Source: Candidatus Woesearchaeota archaeon
GTDB taxonomy: Archaea > Nanobdellota > Nanobdellia > Woesearchaeales > GW2011-AR9
Reading direction: 5' to 3'
NCBI GenBank assembly: GCA_016185625.1
Contig: JACPND010000019.1
Location: 1-62,864, forward strand
Length of the DNA stretch: 62,864 nucleotides
The translations under genes were made by a program, and so were the position numbers. Within the stretch, counting starts at the first letter, position 1; every line of letters begins with the position of its first letter. Positions 1,983 to 23,180 of the stretch are shown here, in pieces. The notes below the pieces were generated by a model. It saw only the letters and a program-made list of their open reading frames with translations, made no database searches and was not told the origin of the DNA.

Positions 1983-2059
1983 TTTTAGCCGAGTCGCGCC
2001 CAAAGGACGTATTCCTTGGAGGATGCGACGCTGGCGTGAATTTGCTACTGGCTTGTTTC

Positions 2060-4096: not shown

Positions 4097-4120
4097 ATGA
4101 GCCATTTGGAAGTCTATTTT

Positions 4121-4919: not shown

Positions 4920-4937
4920 ATGATTCCCTTCAAAACC

Positions 4938-4967: not shown

Positions 4968-5102
4968 GGCCCAGTCGCCTAACCTGGATTTACGATAAGG
5001 GTATATAGGGCAGCAGCGTCCTACTCAGAAGGGTAGAGCTGTTTGTTGGGGGTTCAAATGCACGTAACCGCTGGTTGCGGTGTGAAAGTCCCCTCTGGGC
5101 CG
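4968..5102 (+). tRNA. tRNA-Arg(CCT) with three insertions (D loop, anticodon loop, T loop)
   Basis: Acceptor GGCCCAG/CTGGGCC. D stem GCCT/GGGC with a 27-nt loop. Anticodon stem GCAGC/GCTGT, loop GTCCTA[13 nt]A. T stem GGGGG/CCCCT; T loop TTCAAAT followed by a 30-nt insert at 5060-5089. Confidence 0.7.
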
Positions 5103-5136
5103 TTTTATAGTATATTAATCAAACATTACATAAACC

Positions 5137-5502
5137 ATGAATCGCATATCTCTGGATGAGTTCCTGGAAAAAAATACTGTTCCCGTCCGTGTACATGAAA
5201 GTTCTGCTCCTGTAACTATAGGGAACATTACTTTTGCTCCCGGCTTGCAGATTGATCTGATGGCTTTATGTGGTCAGGGCTATTTTTTAGAAGAACAAAA
5301 TCTTCCTGACGCCATCGAGGAAATAACGTACGCCTACTTACTGAATACAGACGAAAGCAGGACTGGGTATCACCTAATCTCCACCGGACCACCTCCAGAA
5401 TACGTGCTAGAGGATGACGGAATTAGTGAAAGATTCCAACGTCATATAGCCAAAAGAGGCGGATTGGAATTGTTTGGCAAATTTTACTGGAGAAAAAGGT
5501 AA
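5137..5502 (+). CDS. hypothetical protein
   Basis: 121-aa ORF with TATA-like TTTTATAG about 30 nt upstream. No recognisable motif. Confidence 0.45.
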   Translation: MNRISLDEFLEKNTVPVRVHESSAPVTIGNITFAPGLQIDLMALCGQGYFLEEQNLPDAIEEITYAYLLNTDESRTGYHLISTGPPPEYVLEDDGISERFQRHIAKRGGLELFGKFYWRKR

Positions 5503-5556
5503 AACACCTAGTCCACCCCACAAAACTATTTAAATTACTTTCTATTTTCTGCGCTC

Positions 5557-6636
5557 ATGACCTCTCCCCTCCACTACCTGACGCAGGGAACCAGAATTCT
5601 CGCCAGCAGCCTGAAAAGCAGAATCGCGCCCAAGCACTATTTCGGCGATGCCGACACCATCTGCAAAGAAGTCGTCAGCGACTGCTGGAACGGAAAGTAT
5701 TTTCAGACCTCGACAACCAACTTCCCGCAGTTCTGGACGCGCGATTTCGGCTGGTGCACTCAATCATTGATGAAACTCGGCCATGAAGAAAAAGTCCATC
5801 ATACTTTACGTTTTGCTTTAAACAATTTCCAGCAGCATCATGCCATCACCACCACCCAGACGCCAGGAGGAAAACCATTTGACTTTCCCACCTTTGCGGT
5901 GGATTCTCTGCCTTGGTTGATCCACAGCATCAAGATATCTAAATTCCCTTATTACATTTATAAAGATTTCCTCAACCAGCAGATTCAAATCTATCATAAA
6001 AAATTCATTCGGCCGGCGACGGGATTGGTGGATCCCGATTTGCATTTCTCCTCCATTAAAGACTTTGCGGTGAGAAAAAGTTCCTGTTACGATAACTGCA
6101 TGGCCGGATTGTTAGCCCACGATTTGCAGGAGATGAAACTCATCAATCCGTTCAAGCATGATCCAGAAAAAATCCTGATGAAGTATTTCTGGAATGGAAA
6201 CTATTTTTATGATGATCTGCACAAAAAGGAGTACGTCGCCGGAGATGCTAATCTATTCCCTTTTGTCTCCGGAATAATAAGAGATGCTGTTATGGTCAAA
6301 TCTTCTTTTGCCCAGATACAGGCGGCAGGATTGGATCAGCCCTTCCCTTTAAAATACACGGCCATCCGGCAGCAGATTAATTTCATCCCTCAGGAAATTC
6401 TCATGCACAATTACGAGAGCAACGCCATCTGGACGCATCTGGGACTATTCTACATCAAACTCCTAAAGCAAATAGATTCAAAAAAAGCAGCAGAGCATAA
6501 AGAACAATATCGTCAATTAATCGAAAAACACCAGAATTTCCTGGAAGTATTTACCGCTGACGGCCAGCCCTATAGCAGTCCATTCTATGTCTGCGATCGC
6601 GGGATGTTGTGGGCGGCGAATTATGTCACGCTGTGA
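5557..6636 (+). CDS. putative (alpha/alpha)6 six-hairpin glycoside hydrolase-like protein
   Basis: FPQFWTRDFGW resembles the WxRD motif of GH63/GDE-type glycosidases. 359 aa. TATA CTATTTAAAT is upstream. Confidence 0.4.
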   Translation: MTSPLHYLTQGTRILASSLKSRIAPKHYFGDADTICKEVVSDCWNGKYFQTSTTNFPQFWTRDFGWCTQSLMKLGHEEKVHHTLRFALNNFQQHHAITTTQTPGGKPFDFPTFAVDSLPWLIHSIKISKFPYYIYKDFLNQQIQIYHKKFIRPATGLVDPDLHFSSIKDFAVRKSSCYDNCMAGLLAHDLQEMKLINPFKHDPEKILMKYFWNGNYFYDDLHKKEYVAGDANLFPFVSGIIRDAVMVKSSFAQIQAAGLDQPFPLKYTAIRQQINFIPQEILMHNYESNAIWTHLGLFYIKLLKQIDSKKAAEHKEQYRQLIEKHQNFLEVFTADGQPYSSPFYVCDRGMLWAANYVTL

Positions 6637-6654
6637 TAATTGTTCTGATTGTGG

Positions 6655-6819
6655 GTAATACTTCAGCATCCTGAAGTGAAGCGTTACCGTCTTCTCGCCT
6701 CTGGATGTTTTTATCGAGGACAGACATCTCCGTAAGAGACAACCCTCTTGTCGGCTTGAGGTATTTATCGAGAAAGCTCGACCTTATGACGGTGGTGCTT
6801 CATATTACTGAAGTATTAC
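6655..6819. repeat. MITE-like element, GTAATACTTCAGC family (short copy)
   Basis: 13-nt terminal inverted repeats GTAATACTTCAGC / (G)CTGAAGTATTAC. Shares the internal block ACCCTCTTGTCGGCTTGAnGTAT with 43187..43534. Flanking duplication not clear. Confidence 0.6.
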
Positions 6820-6833
6820 AATGTGTCGAAACA

Positions 6834-6841
6834 TTTAAAAA
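6834..6841 (+). promoter_or_regulatory. TATA box (TTTAAAAA) 32 nt upstream of tRNA-Ser(GCT) +1
   Basis: Position and sequence. Confidence 0.5.
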
Positions 6842-6865
6842 ACATCATTCTTCTTACCGATTTAT

Positions 6866-7046
6866 GCCACGGTGGCACAACCCGGTACTGCGCAGGATTG
6901 CTAGATGCGCTGGTTGATGTGGAATATTTCCAAAGATGAAAACCAGTTCCGCGCAGAGATTCTGTCCCGTAAGGGATTCCCGGTTCAAATATTGGCGCCT
7001 GAGCGACAATGCTTCGAACGCCAGTGAGAATGTCCGGGCCGTGGCG
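6866..7046 (+). tRNA. tRNA-Ser(GCT) with about 55-nt anticodon-loop intron and 43-nt T-loop intron
   Basis: Acceptor GCCACGG/CCGTGGC. Anticodon stem CAGGA/TTCTG, loop TTGCTA..A. Variable arm TCCC-GTAA-GGGA. T stem CCCGG/CCGGG; T loop TTCAAAT followed by an insert at 6991-7033. Discriminator G. Confidence 0.75.
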
Positions 7047-7070
7047 CTTTTTTAAGAATCAACGCAGAAC

Positions 7071-8210
7071 TTAATCCGGTGGACAGACTTTCAAATTTTT
7101 AAAATACCCCTCAGTATTCACAGTTGCAAACCCGAATTTTCCGGAGGTATTAATGGTGTCAGTGACCGTAAATTCCTCCTTCCCGTCAAGCATGGCTGTT
7201 ATTTGATTTCCATACGCTTTAACACCTAAAGTATGCCACTGTCCCATCTCACCGATGAAAGGGACAAAATAGAGTCCTTCATTAGCATAATCAATAGCAT
7301 TAAAATAAAGAGAGTTTCCTGAAGAGCATTCTCCGCTGGACATGCATTGCCCAGGCCAATTACCAAGCCACAGCGTATAGCCTGTGTTGTTGGGAGGATT
7401 CCCATTCGGAGTATACCTAAAAAAGAAATGTATTGCATGAGTTGTTCCAGGACTAACTAATTTCACATCGATGCTAGCTTGAAAATCAGCCCATTCCGGA
7501 GTATTCAGATAAGCTATCATTCCTGATGAACCAGTGGGAGTTACTTTGAGATAGCCATTTGGATCGAATGACCATATTCCGCTTTGCGTAACAAGATCGC
7601 TTAAATCAGCTTCCGTACTGAAATTATTTTGGTAGCAAGGAGGTGGTGATGGTTCCGAATCTGCTACTTCAATGATGTCCTTCTTTGGTTCAGTTATAGC
7701 TTCTTGGACCTTATCCGGAACAATATCTAATAGGTCTGAAAGATTGGTATCTTTTATGTCAGGAACTGTTAAGTCAGTGTCTTTTGTATCAAAAACTGCC
7801 AAATCAGGAGAACTCTTATCTGGAGCAGAACTATCATATGCGGTGTCCACTTCTGATACTTCCATTATAACGGTATCAATTTTCTGAGAATCTGGCGATG
7901 AATAGCTGTCTGCGACTTGATCCTTTGTTTCGGATATATAGGCTGAGGTATCAATTTCTTTAAAGTCAAACACTGAATAATTATCCTGATCTCTGCTCTC
8001 GGTTTCAAAAGGGAAATCACTATTCACCAAGTCTGGTCGTGCTAGAAGTTCTGGAGTTGTTTCTGGTTGAGGTGATGCATTGGTTATCTCATAGGTGTCT
8101 TTAAGCTTTCCTTTTTCTTCTTGTTCGGAAGGACGGTATCGGTCTTCCGGGAAACAGCCAACAGTAGAGAGAGCAAGGGCGATGGTGGCTAAGGTTTTTT
8201 TTAGGGCCAT
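7071..8210 (-). CDS. secreted lipoprotein with acidic linker and C-terminal ConA-like lectin/glucanase (DUF1080-like) domain
   Basis: Signal peptide ending STVGC. D/E/S/T-rich low-complexity region. The C-terminal beta-sandwich pattern (HFFFRY..., YTLWLGNW..., GKFGFATV...) is typical of LamG/DUF1080 domains. Confidence 0.55.
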   Translation of the reverse strand: MALKKTLATIALALSTVGCFPEDRYRPSEQEEKGKLKDTYEITNASPQPETTPELLARPDLVNSDFPFETESRDQDNYSVFDFKEIDTSAYISETKDQVADSYSSPDSQKIDTVIMEVSEVDTAYDSSAPDKSSPDLAVFDTKDTDLTVPDIKDTNLSDLLDIVPDKVQEAITEPKKDIIEVADSEPSPPPCYQNNFSTEADLSDLVTQSGIWSFDPNGYLKVTPTGSSGMIAYLNTPEWADFQASIDVKLVSPGTTHAIHFFFRYTPNGNPPNNTGYTLWLGNWPGQCMSSGECSSGNSLYFNAIDYANEGLYFVPFIGEMGQWHTLGVKAYGNQITAMLDGKEEFTVTDTINTSGKFGFATVNTEGYFKNLKVCPPD

Positions 8211-8257
8211 AGGGATTAAATTGCGGGGGTAAGTTATAAAGGTTATGATATATTTTT

Positions 8258-8869
8258 TTATACTCTCTCGGAAAGGTCGTTTACTCTCTTCTCAAAGTCA
8301 TTTATGATTACCAATAAACCAACCTGAGAGTGATATCCTTTACTAATGCTATCTTTATCCCAAGGGAAAGATTTCCATTTTTCATCTAAAATCTTATTTT
8401 TCTTAATTTTTATATCATTATGTAATAAGTAAGTTATAGTGTGCGAAATTAGAAGTATTAAAAGTAAAATCCCCAGCAAAGAACTGACTAAGAAAGCAAA
8501 ATATAAAATTTCCATAGAGACAAGAAGTAAAATGGTAAAGCTGACACTGATGCTAAAATGTCTCCAATAAATATGTGCTGTATCTCTGTCCTCCATGCCT
8601 TCTGGGAATATTTTACTAAATACTTTACTGTAGATTCTAAGTCCAAATAGGTAAATATGTGAACCTATTGCAAAAATAAAAACTAAAAAGAAAAATAAAA
8701 GAAGAAGGGGGTTATTTGCAATTATGGTTAATGAGAATAAACTATTCAAATTAGAAAAGTCAATCAATAGTAGGTATAAAAAGAATAGAGATCCCGATAC
8801 AAAAATTGAAGCATATTTTATAATAATCTCCAGATTTAATGGTGTTGATATCTCCCCTATTTTTCTCAC
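8258..8869 (-). CDS. multi-pass membrane protein (GTG start, overlaps upstream stop as GTGA)
   Basis: Four to five hydrophobic helices. Very AT-rich. Translationally coupled to 8866..11379. Confidence 0.5.
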   Translation of the reverse strand: MRKIGEISTPLNLEIIIKYASIFVSGSLFFLYLLLIDFSNLNSLFSLTIIANNPLLLLFFFLVFIFAIGSHIYLFGLRIYSKVFSKIFPEGMEDRDTAHIYWRHFSISVSFTILLLVSMEILYFAFLVSSLLGILLLILLISHTITYLLHNDIKIKKNKILDEKWKSFPWDKDSISKGYHSQVGLLVIINDFEKRVNDLSERV

Positions 8870-11379
8870 TTAATGTTAAAATTCCCCGTTCTCTGATTAT
8901 CATGCCTTTCAATCGGCCATAGTGCGTCTTTGTCTAACGGCTGTGTACCACAGACGGCGTAAACCCGGTTATTTACCGAATTGCAGAAATAAAGAGTTCC
9001 GTTATTTCCTATGGCTAAATTTGCTGGAGATATGCCATTCATTGTTTTGTTATCAAAATTTTGACTCCAAAGTTCTTCTCCGTTCTTTGGATTTAATGCG
9101 AATAAGCCAGCTTCTCCGAAAACGTAAAGCGTTCTTTCTGTTTGTATGTCTCCATTCACTTCTGTTGATTTTGAGGCAATGGCAACGTCGGAAGTATTAT
9201 CCTTAATACCGTTTTGCCAGTAAACATTACCATTTTTAGTTAGAGATCCGTGTCTTGAGTATAAATTACCTTCTGCATCAATAACCGGAAGCTTGTCACC
9301 TACTTTTTCCTGAATCCATATAACTTGTTCATTTGTGGGATGGTATTTTACTAATTGATCATTCGATGTTGTGAAATATAAATTCCCCTCATTATCAAAT
9401 ATGGGGTAACTGGTTATACTACTTTTGATGATAGACGACAAATCTTTCTTCCACTTTTCAGTTCCATTGGGATTTATAGCATAAAGTGTGTAGTTATTGG
9501 CTGCATAAATAGTTTCTTTTGGACCAACGGATGTACCTACATGATTGTAACCAGGATTATATTCCCATTGTTCTTTGCCATTGAGATTTATTGCAGAGAA
9601 AAAGCCGCGATATTTATTAGCCCAGTCGTAATCTGCTAAATTAGCACTTACATAAGCAGTTCCGGCAAGTGAAACTGTAATTTGAAATATACCCCCGCTA
9701 TCAGCATCGCCACTTGCCCCACCCCCCTCTAAGTCTGGGAGATATTGTACCCAATTTTCTTTTAGAATATCACTTGAAATGGACGTTACTTTCAAATTGT
9801 AATACTTATCATCTCTTACGTATACGGCGCCGTTGTTACTAATAGTTGGGTCTATTGCAATTTTGCCATCTCCGTAAAGCTTGAGATTTCCATCTGTTGG
9901 ATTTAGAGCATACAAGAAACCTTTATCATCATTTACAAAGATAGTCCCATTATGGCCTAGAGCTATGAAGGGATACTTTTCAATACTACATTTTAATTTT
10001 GATACCCCGTCTACCCCGTCTGCTGAACTCCATAGCACACTACCAGCCTTAACATTTGGATTGTTGTCATCACAATCCCAGCTGTTCTTTACATAACCTT
10101 CTGGCTGTTGACAAGACGGCGGCATTAAACTATCCGGGTCACCATCTCCGTCACCATCAGAGTCCTTAAACCATACAAATTGCTCAAATCCTTCATCAAT
10201 TTTTCCATCACAGTTATCATCTATTAAATTACAAATTTCCTTTGCCGTTGGATTTACGGCTGGATTCGAATCGTTGCAATCAGTTGCCAGCTTGACATAG
10301 CCAACTGGTTGCTTGCAATCATTGATGATGGCATCTAAAGTTCCAAAGCCATCGTTGTCATTGTCAAAGTACCAGTTTATAGATACAACGTTGTCATCTT
10401 TGACCCCATTACAATCATTGTCAATGCCGTCGCAAAGTTCAGGTTCTGGCTTTGGTGCATCACATTTCCATTCTCCATTAACACATTCTTCAGACCATTC
10501 ACCGCAGCCCATATCGCACTTTTTCGTTAGATTCTCATCAGTTTGACCATTGCAATCATTATCTAAACCATCACATTGTTCTTTGGTAGGCCACACGTAG
10601 CCAATACACTCGCTCAAGACGCCGTTTGTACAATTTCGTATGCCGTATTCGCATTCGCCAGCATCGGTTTCGCCACAGTTTTGAGGAATTCCATCAATGC
10701 ACTCGCACCCCTCGTCTACTGTTTTATCGCAGTTGTCATCTATGCCGTTGCATAGTTCTGGAAATTCTGGAATACCTGGTCTTATTTTAGGATTGTCATC
10801 ATCACAATCGCCTTGAACATCAACAAAACCTTCTGGTTTACAGTAATTATCTATTTCGCCCAATCCCCCATACTCGTCGCCGTCGTTGTCTTGATACCAC
10901 TTTTTGAGTTTTAACTTATGTTCTTGAAAAGGATCAGATATTTTATCATTAAATCCAGGTTTATCAGTAGAACCATCACAATTATCATCAATGCCGTTGC
11001 ATCCTTCTTCGGCATAAGGATTAATAGGCTTAACCTCGTCATTGCAGTCATCTGCATTATCGGCATAGTTTTCCGGTTTGTCTTTTGGGCAATAAAATTT
11101 TGATGGTTTATTAGGATCTCCAAAATGGTCTTTATCACCATCATAAAAGAACTCTTTTTCTTCACATTTAGTTTCTGCTTCATGTTGAACATCATTATAA
11201 ACTGAAACACTATTCCCAAATCTTATCTCTTGGCGGTTATTTTCTAATTCATAAATGTCTTGCTCGGCAGTGATATCAATATTTTTTTGCGCATTGCCAG
11301 AGATATCATTACTGCCGCAAGATAAAGCAATGGCTGACAATCCGGGTACTAATATTTTTTGTATGATTTTTTCTAGCAT
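8866..11379 (-). CDS. surface lipoprotein: MopE-like Cys/Asp repeats plus C-terminal PQQ/BamB-like beta-propeller
   Basis: Start taken at MLEKIIQKILVPGLSAIALSCGSN, homologous to its neighbours' N-termini and 1 nt after the upstream stop. Repeats CNGIDDNCDG..DE and DGDGFG. Propeller repeats such as LYALNPTDG, LYAINPNGTEKW, LFALNPKNGEELW. Confidence 0.7.
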   Translation of the reverse strand: MLEKIIQKILVPGLSAIALSCGSNDISGNAQKNIDITAEQDIYELENNRQEIRFGNSVSVYNDVQHEAETKCEEKEFFYDGDKDHFGDPNKPSKFYCPKDKPENYADNADDCNDEVKPINPYAEEGCNGIDDNCDGSTDKPGFNDKISDPFQEHKLKLKKWYQDNDGDEYGGLGEIDNYCKPEGFVDVQGDCDDDNPKIRPGIPEFPELCNGIDDNCDKTVDEGCECIDGIPQNCGETDAGECEYGIRNCTNGVLSECIGYVWPTKEQCDGLDNDCNGQTDENLTKKCDMGCGEWSEECVNGEWKCDAPKPEPELCDGIDNDCNGVKDDNVVSINWYFDNDNDGFGTLDAIINDCKQPVGYVKLATDCNDSNPAVNPTAKEICNLIDDNCDGKIDEGFEQFVWFKDSDGDGDGDPDSLMPPSCQQPEGYVKNSWDCDDNNPNVKAGSVLWSSADGVDGVSKLKCSIEKYPFIALGHNGTIFVNDDKGFLYALNPTDGNLKLYGDGKIAIDPTISNNGAVYVRDDKYYNLKVTSISSDILKENWVQYLPDLEGGGASGDADSGGIFQITVSLAGTAYVSANLADYDWANKYRGFFSAINLNGKEQWEYNPGYNHVGTSVGPKETIYAANNYTLYAINPNGTEKWKKDLSSIIKSSITSYPIFDNEGNLYFTTSNDQLVKYHPTNEQVIWIQEKVGDKLPVIDAEGNLYSRHGSLTKNGNVYWQNGIKDNTSDVAIASKSTEVNGDIQTERTLYVFGEAGLFALNPKNGEELWSQNFDNKTMNGISPANLAIGNNGTLYFCNSVNNRVYAVCGTQPLDKDALWPIERHDNQRTGNFNIK

Positions 11380-11380
11380 T

Positions 11381-13459
11381 TTAATCCGCCTTCCCGCATT
11401 TTCCTGATTTTGCAACAAATTTTCCATCTGAGCATTCAGACCAACCATCGCAGTCTAGCGAGATGTAAGCTTTAGTAAACCACTCTTTAATCTGTGGATA
11501 GTCAGATCCTATATGTAAATATTCCCCTACTCCTGCTGTTAAAATTCCTAAGTAGTTTGGATTAGCAAATCCAAATCCCAACGCACAAATCTCAATATTA
11601 TTGTTGTTTGCTTTTTCATTTAGCAGCTCGGGAGCATCACTAGATTGGCCGTCAGTAAAAAGAACAATAGCTCTTTGTCGTTCATTATCTTGGAATTGAC
11701 CTATTGCTGCAAGAACTGCCTTACCAATTTCAGTTCCACCGCCAACGCCTAGAGCTTTCACTCCGTCAAGATATTCTTCAAGTTCGACTTTATCCGAAGT
11801 AAATGAATATTGGTTAAAAGGATAAAACTCGTGGTCAAAAGCAATCATTATACCTCGGTCTTTTTGATTCCAGACTTGGATTACGCTTTCCAACCCATTA
11901 TAGACATAACCAATACTACCCTCCATGCTTCCAGATTTATCAATTACGAATACAATATCATAACCTAAGTTTGTACACTTTGTTTTATCAATAACTATAT
12001 CAGTCAACCCATCACAATCATCGTCAACGCCATTACAGATTTCTTCCATATTTGGATTAACATTGGGATTATCACAGTTGCAATCATCTGAGATCGCAAC
12101 ATATCCTTCTGGCTGTTGGCAATAGAAATCTGATTCGTCAGAGCATCCAAATCCATCTCCGTCAGAATCTTTATAGTATTTAGTTAAACCAAGTAATTCA
12201 TTGTTATTGCCGTCGCAATTATTGTCAATATTATCGCATATTTCAACAGCATTGGGGTTAATGTCTGGATTATCACAATCACAATCATCCCCATTGGTTA
12301 CATATCCCTCCATTAGTTGTTCACACTGTTCTTTTAAGATGTCACTAGGGCATCCAAAGCCATCATTATCAGAATCTTTATATAGGATGTATTTTGTGAA
12401 CCCCTCATCTGTTGCCCCGTCACAATCATCATCCTTACCATTACAAATTTCTGGTTCCAGTTGTGGAGCAGTACAATTAACATAAATTCCATTTAGACAG
12501 GTTTCAAATCCATTTTCTTCACAAAGGTTAGAACAATCTTGAGTTAGGTTTTCATCAGTCTGACCATCACAATTATTATCTAATCCGTCACATTCTTCCT
12601 TGGTTGGATTAATTGCTCCCTTACACTCGCCCCACGTTCCCTCAAGACACTTCTGAACGCCATAACTACATTCACCAACATTGGAAGTACCGCAAGGTTC
12701 GGTTTTTCCATTAATACAGGCGCATTTCTCATCTATCGTACCATCAGAGTTATTATCAATCCCGTCACAGATTTCGGGTATATTGGGATTAACATTGGGA
12801 CTTGTATCGTCGGTGTCATTAGGATTTTGTACATAGCCATTATCAGGATGGGTACAAAATAACTTTTTACCGTTAGGATCACCAAACCCATCTCCATCAT
12901 TGTCTTTATACCATTGAGAATGAATTAATCCTTCATTTACGCCATCATCCCCAGGATCGCAGAGTATACCATCCTTATTGGTATCCTCTTCACAATCACA
13001 ATTATCATCTACGTCATTGCATATTTCTGCCGCAGCTGGATTACGATAAGGATTATCATCGTCACAATCATTAAGTGGGGGATTTGAAGGAATCTGGCAA
13101 GCTTTAGCCCAATTTTTATAGGCTTGGCTCCCAGTATCAATATAACCATCTTTGTCTTTATCGGTCTCCGAATTTAGATAAGTGCTGCAATCAATCTCAT
13201 TCTCAGTATCCTTTGAAGATTCTTCTACTGTAGAATCTTGTTGATCAACGGAATAATTATCTGCTTTTGGAGTAGAAGAATCTGGTTTTGAATAAACCCA
13301 CCCATTTATGCTGCTGCCAGTATCACCACTAACATTGATTCTGTTATTATCGTTAGCACCTATATTATCACCACAACCATGCAGGCCTAAAAGTAAGGAC
13401 GTGGTGAGCAGAGTTCTTCTGAACGGTATTTTTTGAAGTATTTTTTCTAGCATTTTCAT
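11381..13459 (-). CDS. surface lipoprotein: MopE-like Cys/Asp repeats plus von Willebrand factor A domain
   Basis: Signal plus GCGDN lipobox. Repeats CDGxDNNCDG. VWA MIDAS DKSGSM and LFTDGQSSD. Confidence 0.7.
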   Translation of the reverse strand: MKMLEKILQKIPFRRTLLTTSLLLGLHGCGDNIGANDNNRINVSGDTGSSINGWVYSKPDSSTPKADNYSVDQQDSTVEESSKDTENEIDCSTYLNSETDKDKDGYIDTGSQAYKNWAKACQIPSNPPLNDCDDDNPYRNPAAAEICNDVDDNCDCEEDTNKDGILCDPGDDGVNEGLIHSQWYKDNDGDGFGDPNGKKLFCTHPDNGYVQNPNDTDDTSPNVNPNIPEICDGIDNNSDGTIDEKCACINGKTEPCGTSNVGECSYGVQKCLEGTWGECKGAINPTKEECDGLDNNCDGQTDENLTQDCSNLCEENGFETCLNGIYVNCTAPQLEPEICNGKDDDCDGATDEGFTKYILYKDSDNDGFGCPSDILKEQCEQLMEGYVTNGDDCDCDNPDINPNAVEICDNIDNNCDGNNNELLGLTKYYKDSDGDGFGCSDESDFYCQQPEGYVAISDDCNCDNPNVNPNMEEICNGVDDDCDGLTDIVIDKTKCTNLGYDIVFVIDKSGSMEGSIGYVYNGLESVIQVWNQKDRGIMIAFDHEFYPFNQYSFTSDKVELEEYLDGVKALGVGGGTEIGKAVLAAIGQFQDNERQRAIVLFTDGQSSDAPELLNEKANNNNIEICALGFGFANPNYLGILTAGVGEYLHIGSDYPQIKEWFTKAYISLDCDGWSECSDGKFVAKSGKCGKAD

Positions 13460-13472
13460 TCTTCCGTTATCA

Positions 13473-15272
13473 TTATTGGCACTGCCCTTTCAGACAGCCA
13501 TTCAGGCAATAAGTCTTCCCTTGAAGCTGACAATTACTTTCCTGAAATACTTTATATATTGTGTCAAAACATTTCCAGCCTTCAGTACAGTCGGAAGTCT
13601 TATTCTGGACGGCATATTCATCCGTTGGTTCTTCACACGACAAATCACAAGTAAACATTATATCAAAGTCGTCTAAATTTATGTTTGAAGCGCTCACAAA
13701 TTTGTAACACTCGCCTTGCCATTTTAGAGTGAAACAGGCTTTATCTTCACACATCCCAACAGCATATTCGAGCGTTTCACCGGTATTGACACTCTTTATC
13801 TTAATTTTTGGACTACTTTTAGTAGATTTGTCTGCACCTTTGTACTCAAATATTTGACTATCAAGACCAAATATCTCTCCTTTAGAGAATATATCGTTAC
13901 AAGCTAATGCACTAAGTTCTTTACACACACCGTTTATATAATAACTGGCAAAAGAATCGTCGCAATCTAATTTATTATCTATAAATCCTTCTGGTTTCCC
14001 GCAATCAAACATGAAAACATCTGGATTGCCAAAACCATCACCATCGACATCCTCATAGAACTTACTGAATGGCAGCCCTTCGTCAACAGAACTGTTACAA
14101 TTATTATCTAAACCGTCACACACTTCTACAGCACCGGGATTGATGTATTTATCATTATCATTGCAATCTCCAGATTTAGGCGCATAGCCTTCTTCTAACT
14201 CTTTACAATCAACCTTAAACGTAGATGAGCCAAAACCATCACTGTCAGCATCTTTATATCCCGTTGTAAATACCAAGCCTTCATCTATTGCCCCATTACA
14301 ATTATCATCCTCTCCATTACATATCTCTTCTTTCGGTTTTGGTGCAGTACAATTAACATAACTTCCGTTTACACAAGTTTTATCTCCAGGTCCACACTGG
14401 TTTGAACAATCTTGAGTTAGATTTTCATCTGTAAGACCATTGCAGTTATTATCCAACCCATCACATTCTTCTTCAACTGGATTTATTGCTCCTTTGCACT
14501 CGCCCCACGTTCCTTCAACACACTTTTGAACTCCATAACCACATTCACCACCATCAGTAAGACCGCATTTCTGAGTAGTTCCATCAATACACTCGCACGT
14601 CTCATCTACATTATTATCACAGTTATCATCTATACCGTTGCATAGTTCTAAAGCAACGGGATTAAGATAGCTGTTATTGTCATTACAGTCATCTTTATTC
14701 TTAACATATCCTTTGGTTGGTTCGTTACAAAATAATTTCTCTAAGCCGCCGGAGTTACCAAATCCGTCTCCATCGTTGTCTTTATGCCAAGGGAAACGGA
14801 GAAAGCCTTCATCGGCATTACCATTACAATTGTCGTCTATGCCATTACAGGTTTCTTTAGCAAAAGGATGAATCTTATCATTACTATCATTACAATCCCC
14901 ATTCCAATCCTCATTCCATGGATCTGGAACGGAGATGTAGCCTCCTGGTGGATTACATGCTTCTATACCGTATTTAATCGGGAAGCCATCTTCATCTCCA
15001 TCCCAGTAGAATTTTTTCTTCTCGCAAGCCGGCTCAATAATTTCTTCGGAGAAACCATCTTGATAAGTTACTTCATCTTTCCCTACAAATTCGTCAATTC
15101 GTCCAGCGTCAGCTTCATTTCCGCTCAAATCAGTTGCTTCATACGTAGAATCAGGATTGATGATATTCTTAGGAGTGTTAGATAGCTCAGAATTCCCACA
15201 ACCCGACAACGTGTACACCAGCGCAGATATCTTTACAACGGGGGCGAATGATCGTAACAGTTTCTCCAGCAT
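13473..15272 (-). CDS. surface lipoprotein: MopE-like Cys/Asp repeats plus Cys-rich C-terminal domain
   Basis: Start at MLEKLLRSF...SGCGNS. Same repeat units as the two downstream paralogues. Confidence 0.65.
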   Translation of the reverse strand: MLEKLLRSFAPVVKISALVYTLSGCGNSELSNTPKNIINPDSTYEATDLSGNEADAGRIDEFVGKDEVTYQDGFSEEIIEPACEKKKFYWDGDEDGFPIKYGIEACNPPGGYISVPDPWNEDWNGDCNDSNDKIHPFAKETCNGIDDNCNGNADEGFLRFPWHKDNDGDGFGNSGGLEKLFCNEPTKGYVKNKDDCNDNNSYLNPVALELCNGIDDNCDNNVDETCECIDGTTQKCGLTDGGECGYGVQKCVEGTWGECKGAINPVEEECDGLDNNCNGLTDENLTQDCSNQCGPGDKTCVNGSYVNCTAPKPKEEICNGEDDNCNGAIDEGLVFTTGYKDADSDGFGSSTFKVDCKELEEGYAPKSGDCNDNDKYINPGAVEVCDGLDNNCNSSVDEGLPFSKFYEDVDGDGFGNPDVFMFDCGKPEGFIDNKLDCDDSFASYYINGVCKELSALACNDIFSKGEIFGLDSQIFEYKGADKSTKSSPKIKIKSVNTGETLEYAVGMCEDKACFTLKWQGECYKFVSASNINLDDFDIMFTCDLSCEEPTDEYAVQNKTSDCTEGWKCFDTIYKVFQESNCQLQGKTYCLNGCLKGQCQ

Positions 15273-15398
15273 ATCTTCTCCCACACACCATTCACCACTG
15301 GGATATAGGTACTTACTTATAAATCTTTTGGTATTTCAGTAGTTTTTCGGTATTTATTCAGAACTATCATTAAATTACCGAAACAGTTCTGGAATTAG

Positions 15399-15662: not shown

Positions 15663-15757
15663 GAAGTGTTTGACGAGATAGGGGAATAATAGTAAGAGCA
15701 TATTGTTCATCCATAGTGAACAAAAAGTAGTCTTTTTGTGCAATTATAATGAAAACA

Positions 15758-15765
15758 TTTATAAA
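15758..15765 (+). promoter_or_regulatory. TATA box (AACATTTATAAAT) 29 nt before ATG 15787
   Basis: Matches the window consensus. Confidence 0.6.
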
Positions 15766-15786
15766 TAACCCAGTTATTACCTGGTT

Positions 15787-17049: not shown

Positions 17050-17288
17050 AACGGAAGCAACTAGAGAATCCTCATATTCACGTGGTTACTGGAAACGGTA
17101 TGTGGACATGATTGAAGACAAATTGTATGTGCCTCACGAATTATTCACCGAAGATGATGCTGAGAAAGCGTTAAGTGACTGTAATATGTCTTGCAGAAGA
17201 TAAAAGGATGCATCTAGAAGTTAAAATTATCAAAACCAAAGACTTTATTTGAAAAACCTTTATATACGTGAATACTTCTTATTGCCTT

Positions 17289-17852: not shown

Positions 17853-18088
17853 TGGCAGCAGCATTGATTGTCGGCATTGCAGGAATGTTCTGTATTTTGA
17901 TAGCCTTTGTTCTGGATGAATTTGAGTGGTATCTGACGAGAGATACGAAAGGATACAACCTCTTTAATATTTTTGGCTCTGGTGCGCTGCTGTATTATGG
18001 GTATACGTTGCAGGCCTGGCCGTTCGTGATTTTGAATTTAGTGTGGTTGGCGGTGGCGGTGATTAAGTTGATGAGAATAATAAAATGA
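17849..18088 (+). CDS. small membrane protein (3 helices)
   Basis: Hydrophobic 79 aa, coupled to the upstream ORF. Confidence 0.5.
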   Translation: MMAAALIVGIAGMFCILIAFVLDEFEWYLTRDTKGYNLFNIFGSGALLYYGYTLQAWPFVILNLVWLAVAVIKLMRIIK

Positions 18089-18160
18089 CAACCAGGTGTT
18101 CAGTCAGCATAAAATTGAGCCTTTCATAAGATTTTTAAATAGGTTCCTTGTAGGAAAAAG

Positions 18161-19375
18161 ATGGTGCGGGGTGTTTTTGATAAAATGACACACTTAGAAG
18201 ACCAACTCGGCGATGGCTTTTATGCTTTTATTAATCCTGAAGGCATTAATTATTCCCGTTTTGATAAAGCAAAATTAACAGAACGAGTGTTTTCCGGTTT
18301 TTGGTCGCCTGAAACACGATTTGGAGTTTTATTGGAAAATGAGGATAAGAGAAAAACAGAATTGTTGGGTGTCTTTCGGCCTTTTCAAAGACGTGCCGCA
18401 TTAACGAGACCAGTTGAATTACCTGTTGATGCGCTTTATGATGAAGGAATGGCACTCTCTCCTGAATTGTTTCGTCACCTGGCAACTTTCTTTAGGGAAC
18501 TAGGAGAAATAGAGTTTCCCCGACGGGAAATAACTATTTGCTATGAAGGAGAATTTAAGAGAGTTCAAGTCACCAGAATTATGCCTGAAAGGAAATGGTG
18601 GAAAGGCATGTTCATCGATGTCTATGTTGAAAGTGACGCCCTTATCGATAAATTCTCATCCCTGGATGAACAGAGCAGAAAAATTCTTGAAGAAAGCGAC
18701 CAGTGGAAAAGATATGAAAAAGCAGAAAGATATGTTAGAGCACAACAAGAAAAGTGGGGAAGATTTTTTCATGATAAAGAGCTGGAAGAAGATGAAATAC
18801 TAAACCTCTTACGATGGCAGGCAGCGTCTATCCGTCCAGCTCTGTTCAGAAATCCAGAAGATTACAAATATTTCTTATTAGGGTTTCATCACGTCGGCTT
18901 TGATACTGCAAAAATACATGAAGAGACATTAAAGTATTTTAGAGACCAACGGGCCTTGGAGAGGCACATTGACACTTTTAATTCATCTGTAACTGGGCTA
19001 TATGCGTTGTGGAGCCCAGATAGTGAGACTGACCCGCCTCATCTCAGAATACCTCGTCAATATCAAATTTTTGAAAAGGGCGTCTCGGAAGAGCGATTGC
19101 AGGAAGCGTATGAACAAATAATAAAGGATGGAGATCGGATGAGAAGCCCCATCAAAATTTCCGAGGATTTATGGGAACTCGGTTTTCTGACGTTAAAAAG
19201 AACTCGATGGCGTGATAAACAGCCAACGAAGGAATCGTACGCTTTTGTCAGAATTAAAGGAATGAAACCAATACTGCAGGGAAGTTTACCTTTTAAAGAA
19301 TTTGGTGAAGTTGAGTTAGAAAGAGAGTATAATTCTCTACCAAAAAGGCCTTCCCCTTTAGGATTTTTTTATTGA
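18161..19375 (+). CDS. hypothetical protein, 404 aa
   Basis: Long ORF with TATA GATTTTTAAATA about 30 nt upstream. No motif recognised. Confidence 0.5.
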   Translation: MVRGVFDKMTHLEDQLGDGFYAFINPEGINYSRFDKAKLTERVFSGFWSPETRFGVLLENEDKRKTELLGVFRPFQRRAALTRPVELPVDALYDEGMALSPELFRHLATFFRELGEIEFPRREITICYEGEFKRVQVTRIMPERKWWKGMFIDVYVESDALIDKFSSLDEQSRKILEESDQWKRYEKAERYVRAQQEKWGRFFHDKELEEDEILNLLRWQAASIRPALFRNPEDYKYFLLGFHHVGFDTAKIHEETLKYFRDQRALERHIDTFNSSVTGLYALWSPDSETDPPHLRIPRQYQIFEKGVSEERLQEAYEQIIKDGDRMRSPIKISEDLWELGFLTLKRTRWRDKQPTKESYAFVRIKGMKPILQGSLPFKEFGEVELEREYNSLPKRPSPLGFFY

Positions 19376-19422
19376 TTCTACCAAAAATTACAAAATATTC
19401 CTTACAAAATACTCTCAACCAA

Positions 19423-19587
19423 CTATTTCTTCTTCCAATACGACGTCCTGCGCTTCTTAATCTCACCAAAACCACAAGAGGAACAGCGCTTATGAATCAT
19501 ATGATACGAATGATGCCCGCAGCGACGACAGCGAATATGGGTCTTCTTTCCTGATTTCTTTCCATGCGATGCAGTCCCTTTGGTCAT
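19423..19587 (-). CDS. rpl37e: 50S ribosomal protein L37e
   Basis: Not in the ORF track (54 aa): MTKGTASHGKKSGKKTHIRCRRCGHHSYHMIHKRCSSCGFGEIKKRRTSYWKKK, with the C4 zinc ribbon of L37e. Sits directly downstream of LSm as in other archaea. Confidence 0.9.
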   Translation of the reverse strand: MTKGTASHGKKSGKKTHIRCRRCGHHSYHMIHKRCSSCGFGEIKKRRTSYWKKK

Positions 19588-19594
19588 AGTTCAC

Positions 19595-19819
19595 CTACGC
19601 AGGAGAAATGATCGTGATCGTATCCCCGCGGATAAACACATTTCCCAGCTTGCGCTTGATTTCGCCGCCATAATGCTCTTCGGCATCATCCAGGACAATG
19701 TTGATGTGAATGTCAAAAGATTTTAATTTGCCGACATAGCGGTAGCCATTCTTCAGATCTACCATGACATTTTTATTTCGGGCTGCATTCAGCGCGTCTA
19801 ACGGTCTTAATTCTTCCAT
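19595..19819 (-). CDS. Sm-like (LSm/SmAP) protein
   Basis: MEELRPLDALNAARNKNVMVDLKNGYRYVGKLKSFDIHINIVLDDAEE...IRGDTI contains Sm1/Sm2 motifs. The track's 10-aa N-terminal extension was discarded. Confidence 0.85.
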   Translation of the reverse strand: MEELRPLDALNAARNKNVMVDLKNGYRYVGKLKSFDIHINIVLDDAEEHYGGEIKRKLGNVFIRGDTITIISPA

Positions 19820-19945
19820 AATGGTACACCCCCTGCAATAAGTTCTCAAACGCCGTTTTGTTTATAAAGATTGCGTCTGGATTTGAATGAAACGATTTAT
19901 TTTTTATTCGAAAACATTATAAAGTAATCCCTAGTTTACAGGAGC

Positions 19946-20506
19946 ATGATCAATTTTTCAAAACTGCAGCAGGAAATCAAAGAGTATGATACGGAACGAG
20001 AACGCTTGATTTTGAAGAGCAGGGAAGTTCTCAAATTGAGCAAGCAGGTCATCTACGCCGTGCATCGGGATGAAATAAAGAATGCGGCACAATTGGTGAA
20101 AGAAATCCAGCAGAAGAAAAAAGAGCTGGATAAAATAGCCCTGCACAGCAATAAGATGGAGACCGAAGGCAGCTATAAGATAGCGGTGCAGGAATATGTG
20201 GAAGCCCTGTTATATTTCTATTTTGTGCGCGACGGAGAATTAGTGAGCATAGAAGCCTCCCCCGAACATTTTGTTTTAGGCTTGGCGGATCTGCCAGGAG
20301 AATTAAACCGCAGAGCAGTATTTCTGGCCGGAAAAGGGCAAGTGGCCGAGGTAAGTAAGATCCGCGATGCGGTGGATATGATCTATGGCGAATTATTGAA
20401 ATTTGATTTCCGCGATAATGATATCAGGCGTAAAGTAGATGCAGTTAAGTACGAATTACGGAAGCTGGAAGATTTGGTGCTGGACCTGAAATTGAAAGGG
20501 CGTTAA
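19946..20506 (+). CDS. translin-family protein
   Basis: 186 aa helical protein with GLADLPGELNRR, characteristic of translin/TRAX. Confidence 0.7.
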   Translation: MINFSKLQQEIKEYDTERERLILKSREVLKLSKQVIYAVHRDEIKNAAQLVKEIQQKKKELDKIALHSNKMETEGSYKIAVQEYVEALLYFYFVRDGELVSIEASPEHFVLGLADLPGELNRRAVFLAGKGQVAEVSKIRDAVDMIYGELLKFDFRDNDIRRKVDAVKYELRKLEDLVLDLKLKGR

Positions 20507-21201
20507 ATCAAGCCGAAAGAATTTAACAGCAGGATAAACGCGGCATAGACAATGACTCCGAGTGTGAAGTAGAACGGATTACTGGCTTTGTATTGTGGCA
20601 ACACTTCTTTTCCAATGATGTAAATGAGCACCCCGCTGACAAAACCAAGGGCAGGATATAAAAAAGCATTACTGACGTGCAGAACTTCAGCGATAATCGC
20701 TCCAAACAAAAATGTTGCGGCAGAGAGAATCCTCTTGAGGAGGAGATAACGTTCTTGTTTAGCATGCAGATCTTCAAAGAGGGCACTAGTGGTGAGGTAC
20801 ACGAAACTTAGCGAGATGGCGAACAAGAAACCAGAGAGCTGTTGGATTTTCAAGAGTTCGATAAGTGCGATGCCGACCATAGTGTGGTAAAAGAAAAAAA
20901 CACTTAAATGCAGGTAGCTTAAGTCACGTCGTAATTTAGGTTTCTTTTCGTATTTTACAATGGATTTTTCAGCGATGTGGAAAACGGAAAAACCGATTAA
21001 AGTCGTTAGAAAAATACCCAAGCCGAAGATGTCAATGCCTTGATATGCTTCCGGCAGCAGCTGAAGAAAAACATATACTGTTGCCAAACCAATCGTAAAT
21101 GATGCAAATTTGTTTTTGTGATGTTCAAATTTTTGCAGAAATTGAGGACTTAAAAAACTAGCCGCACCCAAGAGAATGCTTAATAGATAGCCTATTATCA
21201 T
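20503..21201 (-). CDS. integral membrane protein (possibly a metal-ion transporter)
   Basis: Seven to eight hydrophobic segments. LLPEAYQ and HIAEK motifs resemble ZIP-like carriers only weakly. Confidence 0.4.
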   Translation of the reverse strand: MIIGYLLSILLGAASFLSPQFLQKFEHHKNKFASFTIGLATVYVFLQLLPEAYQGIDIFGLGIFLTTLIGFSVFHIAEKSIVKYEKKPKLRRDLSYLHLSVFFFYHTMVGIALIELLKIQQLSGFLFAISLSFVYLTTSALFEDLHAKQERYLLLKRILSAATFLFGAIIAEVLHVSNAFLYPALGFVSGVLIYIIGKEVLPQYKASNPFYFTLGVIVYAAFILLLNSFGLI

Positions 21202-21257
21202 AAAAGAAGGTTATTCTTTAGATATAAAAAACTTTCTTTATAATGATACTGTTTACT

Positions 21258-21380
21258 AAATGAATGACGGCTAGGCCAAGAGGTTTGCGAGGTAAAGCTA
21301 CATACTGTTCTTGGAACGGCTTTTCCTCGAAACTGAGTTATCGAAAAAGCCGCCGAGCAAACGGCCAGCCGTCATTCTTT
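21258..21380. repeat. hairpin element, GGCC-bulge family
   Basis: AAATGAATGACGGCT-A-GGCC-AAGAG-GTTTGC ... GCAAAC-GGCC-AGCCGTCATTCTTT. Confidence 0.55.
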
Positions 21381-21449
21381 CGTTAAGAACACGTATCTTT
21401 TATAAGGCGAATAAGGATAAAACAATAAGAAGAATGAAATAAGAAGATA

Positions 21450-21602
21450 CTACCTTTTCTTCTTTCCCTTTTTCCGTTTTCTCGACACCGCCAGTCTCTT
21501 TAATTTCCGCACTTTAGAATCCTTGCTCTTGCGGCTGGGACGGCGAGATCGCTTCCCGTGACGATGAACTACTTTCTTTGCTGACTTTTTCCTCTTTTTC
21601 AT
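21450..21602 (-). CDS. 50-aa extremely basic peptide (MKKRKKSAKKVVHRHGKRSRRPSRKSKDSKVRKLKRLAVSRKRKKGKKKR)
   Basis: Open frame below the track cutoff. About 60 percent K/R/H. Function unknown. Confidence 0.3.
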   Translation of the reverse strand: MKKRKKSAKKVVHRHGKRSRRPSRKSKDSKVRKLKRLAVSRKRKKGKKKR

Positions 21603-22124
21603 GATTTATACCTCTGGACTCAGTGAGGAAGTGCCTCAAACGGCGTACCGACATCACGCTTAACCTACCAGTGCGTTTTAGAGGTTATCTCCTCGCGCTA
21701 TGGACAAGCTTACCCCGATGCAGATTTCATACGGTGAGTTATAGTCCAGCCACCTCTTGATAGTTGAACATCTGGCAGAGGCTGCTATAGTCGCATCCTT
21801 TTCAGGACAACTGAATTGTCCGAGTAAATTTTAGAAAAGAGGTTAAAGTTTATATTTTTTTAGGACTACTTTAGGATAGAAATTTTGTCTCAACTTTTGC
21901 GGTACCTGAATTTTGCTAGATTTTTATACACTACCTGCAATCGAGGCATTAGAATCTTCGCGATATGGTTACAAAGTAAGTCTAAAAGATTTTACATCTA
22001 ATCATGAATGGAGTGTTCATGTTCCTCTCGAACCAAAACAAAAAGAGATTTTAAAAGAGTTAAATGTAGTGTATAAAAAATAGGGAAAATTCGGGTAGCT
22101 ATGATGCGCCAGAAGATGAAGTGA

Positions 22125-22985
22125 TTATTGCAGATATTTCGTATATCTATTGGCATGATCGTGGAAGAGCATCACATAATTCCCTTTCTTTGGAAGGTGA
22201 TTAAGTGCTGCGGCAAGAACTGCGCCAGACGAGATGCCCACGGAAATACCATCATTGTTTAATTTTTTGAAATACGTAATGGCTTCTTCATCTTCTATGA
22301 AAATACGCTGCTCTTCAAATGGTTGCGGACGATCCAGCCAAATCTTAAAGTCGCCCCGGATCTGTCCCGGATGAAGCCCCTCTATCTTTGTGGGAGATGA
22401 CTTTGAACTGACAGCATAAATTTTGCAATAGGAATACTCTTCACGAATTCTTTTAGCTAATCCAATCAGGCTTGCGCCCGTTCCTACGCCGGCAACCACA
22501 GCATCGATAGAAACATGCCGCTCTCTTGATTGATTAAGAACTTCCTGTCCTAAACTATGATAATAGGCCTCGATGTGATACGGGTTTTCAAACTGGTTGA
22601 GGAAATACCAATCAGATTGTTTCCCAAATTCACGCGCAGCGTCGATGTCTGCTTCCGTGTCTTTAGTGGTGTCATATTCACAAATTTCAGCTCCATTCTG
22701 TCGAATGAACCATTTTTTATCAGCGGAGATGTGTTTAGGCATGCAAATCACAATTTTATATCCTCGTTCTGTTCCTCCTTTAGACAGAGCAATTCCAGTA
22801 TTCCCTGAGCTTGCTTCAACGATGGTCATCCCTTTGCGGAGTACTTTGTCTTGTTCTAATCTCTGAATGGCGTAGCGCACAAAACGATCTTTCATCGAGC
22901 CAGTTGGATTCTGTGCTTCGATTTTCGCAAAGAGCCGTCGTTCCGGTGTTTGGTACTGTTTCAATTCGATAAGTGGTGTGGTCAT
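22125..22985 (-). CDS. cysteine synthase / cystathionine beta-synthase family PLP enzyme
   Basis: PLP-lysine motif NPTGSMKDR, SSGNTG loop, GVGTGASL. Start at MTTPLIEL; the track's extension runs into tRNA-Pro. Confidence 0.8.
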   Translation of the reverse strand: MTTPLIELKQYQTPERRLFAKIEAQNPTGSMKDRFVRYAIQRLEQDKVLRKGMTIVEASSGNTGIALSKGGTERGYKIVICMPKHISADKKWFIRQNGAEICEYDTTKDTEADIDAAREFGKQSDWYFLNQFENPYHIEAYYHSLGQEVLNQSRERHVSIDAVVAGVGTGASLIGLAKRIREEYSYCKIYAVSSKSSPTKIEGLHPGQIRGDFKIWLDRPQPFEEQRIFIEDEEAITYFKKLNNDGISVGISSGAVLAAALNHLPKKGNYVMLFHDHANRYTKYLQ

Positions 22986-23044
22986 GGCGTTAAAATTACT
23001 CTCTGCTTGTGTCTTCTCTTTGAGACTATAAAAATATTGTGAAA

Positions 23045-23180
23045 TGGGGCTGCGAGGACTTTCACGCCGCAACCATCGGTTACCTGCATTTGAACCCCGG
23101 TCACGCGGCCCCGAACCGCGTATCTTATTGCTCAGGTACATGCTTTTACACATGTAGGTACCAAGCTGGACTACAGCCCC
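23045..23180 (-). tRNA. tRNA-Pro(CGG) with D-loop insertion and 30-nt T-loop intron
   Basis: Acceptor GGGGCTG/CAGCCCC. Anticodon arm CGCGG-TTCGGGG-CCGCG. T stem CGGGG/CCTCG; T loop TTCAAAT followed by an insert at fwd 23058-23087. About 34 extra nt in the D loop. Confidence 0.75.

Follow-up and report, generated by a model that had tools for sequence, protein, structure and literature searches.

Near-identical inserts, probably protein-spliced introns, in the T-loops of tRNA genes of different identity in a Woesearchaeota-type archaeon

Interrupted tRNA genes of the window

This study deals with inserts found in the T-loops of tRNA genes on contig JACPND010000019.1 of Candidatus Woesearchaeota archaeon (assembly GCA_016185625.1); the whole stretch analysed, 62,864 nucleotides (nt) long, is referred to below as the window. 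The proteins encoded in the window are archaeal and include GatE, MetRS, aIF2-alpha, an Rpo7-like subunit and ribosomal protein S2. The nearest relatives of GatE share no more than 72% identity with it and come from organisms labelled Woesearchaeota or Nanoarchaeota. Since GatE matches these organisms and aIF2-alpha, Rpo7 and S2 are encoded, the lineage is, judged by its genes, archaeal and DPANN, of Woesearchaeota type.

When run on the raw 62.8-kb window, ARAGORN did not call any of the seven tRNA genes present, and Rfam RF00005 detected two of them (Ala and Leu). The seven genes were recovered with a scan of our own for G53-TTCRA combined with a T-stem and an acceptor stem. All are interrupted, and the acceptor stem, T-stem and anticodon arm are intact in each. 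Five carry an insert in the T-loop. These are tRNA-Ser(CGA) (1846..1982, minus strand; 44 nt at 1859-1902), tRNA-Gly(CCC) (3840..3994, minus strand; 84 nt, its sole insert), tRNA-Arg(CCT) (4968..5102, plus strand; three introns, that of the T-loop being 30 nt long), tRNA-Ser(GCT), with anticodon GCU (6866..7045, plus strand; 43 nt at 6990-7032), and tRNA-Pro(CGG) (23045..23180, minus strand; a D-loop insert of about 33 nt and a T-loop intron of 30 nt). Two genes have no T-loop intron: tRNA-Ala(CGC) (3539..3627, minus strand; RF00005 score 55.8 bits), which has a D-loop insert, and tRNA-Leu(CAG) (24905..25026, minus strand; 44.4 bits), which has a canonical intron. TATA-like promoter boxes lie about 30 nt upstream of tRNA-Arg and tRNA-Pro. 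The T-loop itself reads UUCAAAU, or UUCAAUU in tRNA-Gly, in 5/5 of the genes bearing a T-loop intron, and UUCGAAU (Ala) or UUCGAAC (Leu) in 2/2 of those without one. In this sample of five against two, such a UUCA/UUCG split would fit either a UUCA:UGAA pairing between loop and intron or a joint transfer of loop and intron.

A shared family of T-loop inserts

The T-loop inserts of tRNA-Arg and tRNA-Pro are identical at 27 of 30 positions (90%), differing at three. No other place in the 62.8-kb window resembled either insert within 11 mismatches, and the pattern GTAACC-N-GGTTRC-N-GAAAGT occurred twice in the window against none in 100 shuffles. Because the flanking T is repeated, the inserts can be written between residues 60 and 61 or between residues 59 and 60. 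In the 60/61 register they occupy 5060-5089 (plus strand) in tRNA-Arg, 23058-23087 (minus strand) in tRNA-Pro and 3853-3936 (minus strand) in tRNA-Gly. These are the positions given by an earlier reading of the DNA made without database searches (the sequence-only reading), which proved correct to the base. That reading had placed the inserts in the T-loop, which holds; its 60/61 register has been refined to 59/60, the site favoured by the modelled splicing geometry described below. In this register the inserts lie at 5059..5088 (Arg), 23059..23088 (Pro) and 3854..3937 (Gly).

The 84-nt tRNA-Gly insert represents a long form of the same element. It shares GCAAGTAACC...GGTTAC-TACG-GAAAGT with the short forms, that is, the first 10 and the last 16 or so nucleotides, so that both forms have the same adaptor ends. 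The length and matching ends of this insert had been correctly described by the sequence-only reading; the extra sequence within the loop of the GUAACC/GGUUAC stem amounts to 58 nt rather than the 55 or so estimated then, and includes the hairpin GUGGGG...CCCCAC. Over the family as a whole, a short form of 30 nt and a long form of 67-84 nt, whose stem encloses a variable GC-rich hairpin, share an adaptor consisting of UGCAAGUAACC at the 5' end and GGUURY-NGYG-UGAAAG at the 3' end. Several differences between copies, read from the alignment, preserve helices (U7:G to U7:A, G6:C to G6:U and G2:U to G2:C). Comparison of the two forms suggests that the short one may be the long one minus its internal block, through deletion, or conversely that a cargo hairpin may have been inserted to give the long form.

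Likeness of this kind did not extend to the hosts. The spliced tRNA bodies are only 58-63% identical, which is ordinary for unrelated tRNAs, and the four host T-stems are all different (GGGGG, CGGGG, CCGGG and CCCGG). The introns of tRNAs with different anticodons are therefore far more alike than the tRNA bodies that contain them, as in a transposed intron family. This comparison bears out the earlier statement that the surrounding exons are unrelated, and 27/30 identity in the introns against 58-63% in the exons supports its proposal of intron spread between tRNA genes rather than gene duplication.

We compared the three loci with Logan contigs from each of the four groundwater metagenome runs from which the genome derives, all of them DNA. 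The Arg, Pro and Gly loci were found identical, without differences, in independent contigs of the four runs, thus excluding mis-assembly.

Cloverleaf restoration and bulge-helix-bulge geometry

In archaeal tRNA introns that are spliced by proteins, excision restores the cloverleaf and the splice sites lie in a bulge-helix-bulge (BHB) motif. Removal of the Gly insert alone led ARAGORN to call a tRNA-Gly(CCC) of 71 nt. A tRNA-Arg(CCT) of 75 nt was called after removal of the T-loop insert together with the 17-nt D-loop and 13-nt canonical inserts, the D-loop intron being one whose removal the cloverleaf requires. For tRNA-Pro(CGG), removal of the T-loop insert and the D-loop insert of about 33 nt gave a call of 74 nt. 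The identities assigned by the sequence-only reading are thus those that ARAGORN returns. The cloverleaf was likewise restored for a tRNA-Tyr(GUA) of another Woesearchaeota genome (locus L006, see below).

From the canonical case we derived a rule for the BHB motif, in which the outer helix is followed by 4 nt, 2 nt and the 5' splice site, and the 3' side consists of 4 nt, 2 nt, the splice site, 1 nt and the outer helix. This single rule fits five introns: those of tRNA-Arg at 19/20, 37/38 and 59/60, the T-loop intron of tRNA-Pro and the L006 tRNA-Tyr intron. The outer helix (A:A') comprises 4-5 base pairs (bp), with 5 in every T-loop intron, and the central helix (B:B') pairs at 4/4 positions. 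The D-loop intron of tRNA-Arg (19/20; 4988..5004, plus strand) shows A:A' of 4 bp, B:B' of 4 bp (ACCU:GGGU) and an inner helix of 2 bp, and the canonical intron at 37/38 (5024..5036, plus strand), which ARAGORN also calls as an intron, shows A:A' of 5 bp and B:B' of 4 bp. Splice sites could not be placed by this rule in the D-loop insert of tRNA-Pro, which may consist of two introns or use a more relaxed motif.

For introns of the T-loop family, the T-stem (49-53:61-65, 5 bp) serves as outer helix, and the central helix is formed by U54-A57 (UUCA) with UGAA near the 3' end of the intron. The two bulges are of 3 nt each, A58 A59/U and A G/U60, where the slash marks the splice site. The interior contains an inner helix of 2 bp (G2:Y23 and C3:G22), an internal loop and then the 6-bp GUAACC/GGUURY stem. 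The central helix is complete (4/4) in Arg, Pro and Tyr and pairs at 3/4 positions in the tRNA-Ser inserts described below. Two bulges flanking a 4-bp helix are therefore present in relaxed form, and the BHB-compatible fold that the sequence-only reading had named as a check can be drawn, in this form, for every copy. Folds constrained to the BHB motif lay 0.6-1.9 kcal/mol above the minimum free energy (MFE) across all six T-loop introns (Arg 1.3, Pro 1.8 and Gly 0.6 kcal/mol), and a looser BHB-like suboptimal fold of the Arg T-arm appeared without constraint at 0.3 kcal/mol above the MFE. When GU pairs are allowed, the chance that a 4-bp central helix falls at a cloverleaf-restoring site is about 0.02 per intron.

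Two other classes of insert were considered and rejected. Group I or II self-splicing introns have a ribozyme core of more than 200 nt, whereas the inserts measure 30-84 nt and gave no Rfam intron match, either at the gathering threshold or at E<=5. At E<=5 the Gly locus yielded a weak tRNA match alone. As for C/D box guide RNAs, neither C (RUGAUGA) nor D (CUGA) boxes were seen on reading the 30-, 67- and 84-nt sequences, and no Rfam snoRNA match was obtained.

Copies in other genomes and in the source metagenomes

An exact-pattern scan was performed on 185,579 genomes, one per prokaryote species, and also on JGI metagenomes and viral contigs; the genome collections evidently do not contain the genome of the window itself. 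In the species genomes GGTTCAAWTGCANGTAACC was found in 13 stretches, 12 of them chance matches in bacteria and one a real copy (L006). Fifteen stretches were found in the JGI metagenomes, where the only real copy (L028) has the same sequence as L006. Among 81 stretches from viral contigs, none had the 3' half of the pattern. L006 is a tRNA-Tyr(GUA) gene of Ca. Woesearchaeota CG10_big_fil_rev_8_21_14_0_10_36_11 (687-875, minus strand). Its 59/60 intron is a long form of 67 nt, with the first 20 nt identical to the Gly copy and the UGAAAG end. This tRNA also contains a canonical intron of 50 nt, and ARAGORN calls Tyr after removal.

We then turned to the source metagenomes. Readings of metagenome contigs were made from short pieces and 30-nt flank consensuses and are tentative. 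In the four runs the short form was confined to the two contigs of this genome. The 5' part of the long form (T-loop plus the first 31-35 nt of the intron) was present at 92-95% identity in three or more other contigs, whose T-stems and upstream exons differ. In the first of these (2.8-12 kb), the upstream flank reads CCACG-CUCAUAA-CGUGG, giving the anticodon CAU. Because its depth profile over the runs (17/34/8.4/8.3) resembles that of the window (17.7/31/6.4/7.1), this contig may carry a fourth host tRNA of the same genome. A second contig has the T-stem GCGUG and a different inner hairpin, and others are short and of about twice the window depth; the T-stem GAGGG was also read among these contigs. 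The family therefore recurs in non-orthologous tRNA genes: the Woesearchaeota tRNA-Tyr, and metagenome contigs with the CAU anticodon or other hosts.

The inner hairpin of the Gly copy (UCAAGUGGGGCACUCACUGCAUUCGACCCCACGACCU; 3878-3914, minus strand) also recurred, about 92% identical, in several short metagenome contigs whose 5' flanks differ; one of these flanks resembles a GAUCGAAAU T-loop. Other organisms in these samples have tRNA-Gly genes whose T-loop intron is absent or different. One such gene carries a 45-nt insert that has the GAAAGU end and contains CUCACUGCGUUCGG, like CUCACUGCAUUCGA of the Gly copy. These sequences suggest that the inner hairpin could be exchanged as a module.

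In the nearest relatives, the loci surrounding GatE and the PALP enzyme contained no tRNA genes. The closest relative that was found (L035, 9600-10000; PALP 76% identical) shares with the window the 30 nt directly upstream of the PALP gene, but tRNA-Pro(CGG) is absent there.

A second T-loop family in tRNA-Ser

The T-loop introns of the two tRNA-Ser genes, 43 nt at 6990-7032 (plus strand) and 44 nt at 1859-1902 (minus strand), are unrelated to the Arg/Pro/Gly family. For tRNA-Ser(GCU) the MFE fold of the intron is itself BHB-like. The two families are alike in their site, in their pairing logic (UUC(A) with GAA) and in their spread across tRNA identities, contig flanks of the Ser family reading as tRNA-Pro(UGG), tRNA-Arg(UCG) and others. 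They differ in that the sequences cannot be aligned, in the size of the Ser form (43-44 nt) and in abundance, the Ser family being far commoner in the community: it was found at 80-100% identity in at least 10 contigs per run, against two contigs for the short Arg/Pro form.

A related pairing was noticed in tRNA-Leu. Its canonical intron ends with GUGAGAAAC, facing UUCA at U32-A35, and the Ser T-loop intron ends with GUGAGAAUG, facing UUCA at U54-A57. Both can be drawn with a UUCA:UGAG helix and an enlarged 3' bulge, which hints, as modelled, at a relaxed motif that the local endonuclease might accept.

Other features of the window

Upstream of tRNA-Gly (4063-4100, minus strand) lies a partial 5' copy of the gene, comprising acceptor and D-arm, with a period of 102 nt, and upstream of tRNA-Ser(CGA) (1982-2035, minus strand) a partial 5' copy of 13 nt with a period of 53 nt. 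In the case of tRNA-Gly, the sole well-spaced TATA box (at about -32) precedes the upstream copy, the real gene having TATATTT at about -15. The possibility that these 5' duplications delimit extra introns was rejected, as no convincing BHB could be drawn (the best, at position 8/9 of Gly, had only two outer bp and two central G-U pairs). Both tRNAs are probably transcribed with long 5' leaders.

The last 33 nt of tRNA-Leu(CAG) followed by TTT are repeated exactly 92 nt downstream (24905-24937 and 24813-24845, minus strand), with a hairpin in the spacer. By its sequence this repeat is an att-like footprint; tRNA-Leu is one of the two window tRNAs without a T-loop intron. Between tRNA-Gly and tRNA-Arg (4359-4920, plus strand) is a small two-gene cassette which, judged by eye, encodes a Doc/Fic-type toxin (HxFxDGNKR motif) and then a ribbon-helix-helix-like protein. 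Finally, three tandem genes at 8866-15284 (minus strand) encode secreted proteins of 860, 692 and 603 amino acids with many Cys-rich CNGxDDxCDG repeats, one having a VWA-like C-terminus and another a beta-propeller-like tail; such proteins probably act at the surface of the episymbiont or in adhesion.

Discussion

The inserts are homologous, their removal restores the cloverleaf, their geometry is compatible with a BHB motif, and they are present in other tRNAs and other genomes. We consider it likely that they form one family of protein-spliced BHB tRNA introns at position 59/60 of the T-loop in a Woesearchaeota-type DPANN archaeon. Excision would proceed as follows. The host pre-tRNA would provide the T-stem (49-53:61-65) as outer helix and U54-U55-C56-A57 as one strand of the central helix, and the intron would supply UGAA, directly before its last two bases, together with the hairpin GUAACC/GGUURY. 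The splicing endonuclease would cut within the two 3-nt bulges and RtcB would join the exons; we infer the roles of EndA and RtcB because they are established in archaeal tRNA splicing (PMC4090602, PMC5829648). Residues 54-57 are UUCA in every tRNA found here to carry an intron of the Arg/Pro/Gly family, and the same intron would therefore fit any of these hosts without adaptation. Near-identical copies could in this way occur at one position in Arg, Pro, Gly, Tyr and CAU-anticodon tRNAs with unrelated exons, because the hosts share UUCA. As for the way in which the copies might have spread, we favour DNA-level copying between T-arms or retro-insertion after reverse splicing, with no preference between these two.

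Several observations weigh against this explanation. The central helix of the Gly copy pairs at only 3/4 positions, A57 standing opposite G. The motif departs from a strict hBHBh': an unpaired, conserved G separates the inner and central helices, and the inner helix does not abut the bulge (C:C' = 0). UUCAA/GAAAG remains an open internal loop when Arg, Pro, Gly and Tyr are folded at the MFE. The BHB criterion is moreover lenient, giving 5-13 chance matches per shuffled pre-tRNA, which makes it unfit as a stand-alone detector; in such modelling the BHB fits count as evidence only through their coincidence with the cloverleaf-restoring sites, and not through any uniqueness of those sites. In a search for RNA runs with the locus, none was found carrying the Arg, Pro or Gly inserts, and a scan of 36 window open reading frames revealed no EndA or RtcB domain. 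Lastly, the exact-pattern scans of species genomes and JGI metagenomes yielded one other copy only, from which the family would seem to be either rare or fast-diverging.

A first alternative is that the sequences are conserved by selection on the excised intron or on the pre-tRNA, for instance as a circular RNA, as a protein-binding hairpin or through the ordering of T-loop modifications, rather than by recent copying. We regard this as unlikely, even though identity across hosts is 92-95% over the first 31-35 nt of the long form, against about 70% for the nearest GatE relatives, and although the inner hairpin module (3878-3914) is found again next to other flanks. Selection leaves the presence of the same sequence in unrelated tRNAs unexplained, so that copying would still be required. 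Furthermore, the short forms have no inner module, the loop of the module hairpin varies freely between copies, and neither Rfam matches nor C/D boxes were seen.

Common descent would require an ancestral, intron-bearing tRNA gene that was duplicated long ago to give the Arg, Pro and Gly genes, the exons then diverging around an unchanged intron. The identical position of all copies and the UUCAAAU or UUCAAUU loops of all hosts agree with such a history, which is nevertheless highly improbable. The exons, which are under strong purifying selection, show 58-63% identity, whereas the normally freer intron is 90% identical. tRNA isoacceptor families are older than the archaea. In addition, tRNA-Pro is missing from the orthologous locus of the closest relative found (PALP 76% identical), and tRNA-Gly genes of organisms sampled together with this one either lack a T-loop intron or carry another.

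We give slightly less weight still to the view that the inserts are retained, the genes being pseudogenes or encoding tRNAs that function with an enlarged T-loop. Consistent with it are the failure of standard finders to detect these genes and the lack of an RNA run with the locus among those searched. An insert of 30-84 nt between residues 59 and 60 would, however, destroy the elbow formed by the T-loop and D-loop. All seven window tRNA genes are interrupted and yet keep their acceptor stem, T-stem and anticodon arm, the Arg and Pro genes have promoter boxes about 30 nt upstream, and BHB geometry at exactly the cloverleaf-restoring sites is unlikely by chance (about 0.02 per intron).

Convergence, in which any 59/60 intron must pair with UUCA and similar ends arise independently, might be proposed from the unrelated Ser-family intron, whose end, ...GAGAAUG, likewise pairs with UUC(A), but it is refuted because intron identity is full-length: pairing constrains about 4 nt only, the identity runs through the whole 30 nt, unpaired residues and GUAACC/GGUUGC hairpin alike, and the Ser family, which cannot be aligned, is itself the independent solution.

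Protein-spliced BHB introns that spread by copying are thus retained as the likely explanation. A stronger version of it, which we put forward only tentatively and think rather doubtful, is that the family is a modular and currently mobile element specialised for the T-loop, with a constant adaptor, an exchangeable inner hairpin as cargo and horizontal passage between co-resident DPANN archaea of one aquifer. If this were true, any tRNA with a UUCA T-loop would be open to entry. The T-arm is the usual attachment site of integrases, and an interrupted T-arm could shield tRNA genes from integrating elements.

The T-loop family extends intron copying, a phenomenon already known, to a new lineage. 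Introns at 59/60 and relaxed BHB motifs are already covered in reviews (PMC4090602), and multi-intron tRNAs and intron transposition are likewise in print (PMC4090602, PMC4033280). The sequence-only reading had stressed a rare non-canonical site in a very different genome type, and had itself named Thermoproteales for multiple introns and transposition; the new lineage stands, whereas the site had been published as well. In Thermoproteales, as far as the work of Fujishima 2010 (Mol Biol Evol 27:2233) is reported in PMC4033280 and PMC4090602, similar introns are shared by different isoacceptors. As here, near-identical BHB introns occur in unrelated tRNA bodies, with several introns per tRNA, and the pattern is read as gain by copying between genes. 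The present case differs from that account in its host, a member of Woesearchaeota/DPANN with a small genome from mesophilic groundwater, and in that all copies of the family found here lie at 59/60, pair with a UUCA at 54-57 that is the same in every host, and fall into a short and a long form, whose inner hairpin may be exchangeable. The 59/60 site and relaxed motifs resembling HBh' or hBH are also shared with the non-canonical introns of Marck & Grosjean 2003 and Sugahara et al. 2008, 2009, as summarized in PMC4090602. Those introns concern positions in Crenarchaeota and Nanoarchaeota, and the reviews, as far as they treat them, describe no T-loop family shared between isoacceptors.

Closer in phylogeny is the work on DPANN splicing endonucleases (ARMAN epsilon2, PMC3239211/PMC3488258; alpha4, PMC5829648), which concerns the same superphylum and its many non-canonical and multiple introns. 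An alpha4 EndA with an L3 loop, including that of a Woesearchaeote, has been linked to more tRNA disruption (PMC5829648). These studies treat the enzyme and counts of intron types, not intron sequence families, and our full-text search of the literature found no description of intron sequence families in Woesearchaeota tRNAs. Incomplete DPANN tRNA sets have been explicitly attributed to undetected disrupted genes (PMC3239211/PMC3488258; PMC5829648).

Intron copying between tRNA genes, so far described in Thermoproteales, is thus extended to DPANN archaea. The tRNA sets of these organisms are routinely reported as incomplete since standard finders miss such genes, as they did here (ARAGORN 0/7, Rfam 2/7), and the two T-loop families could be used as search seeds for tRNA annotation in metagenome-assembled genomes of Woesearchaeota. 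The T-loop case also clarifies the logic of such introns: the host provides the UUCA strand and the T-stem, so that one intron can serve many tRNAs. With short and long forms, and with presence and absence varying among co-occurring populations, the family offers a natural system in which the gain of BHB introns may be followed.

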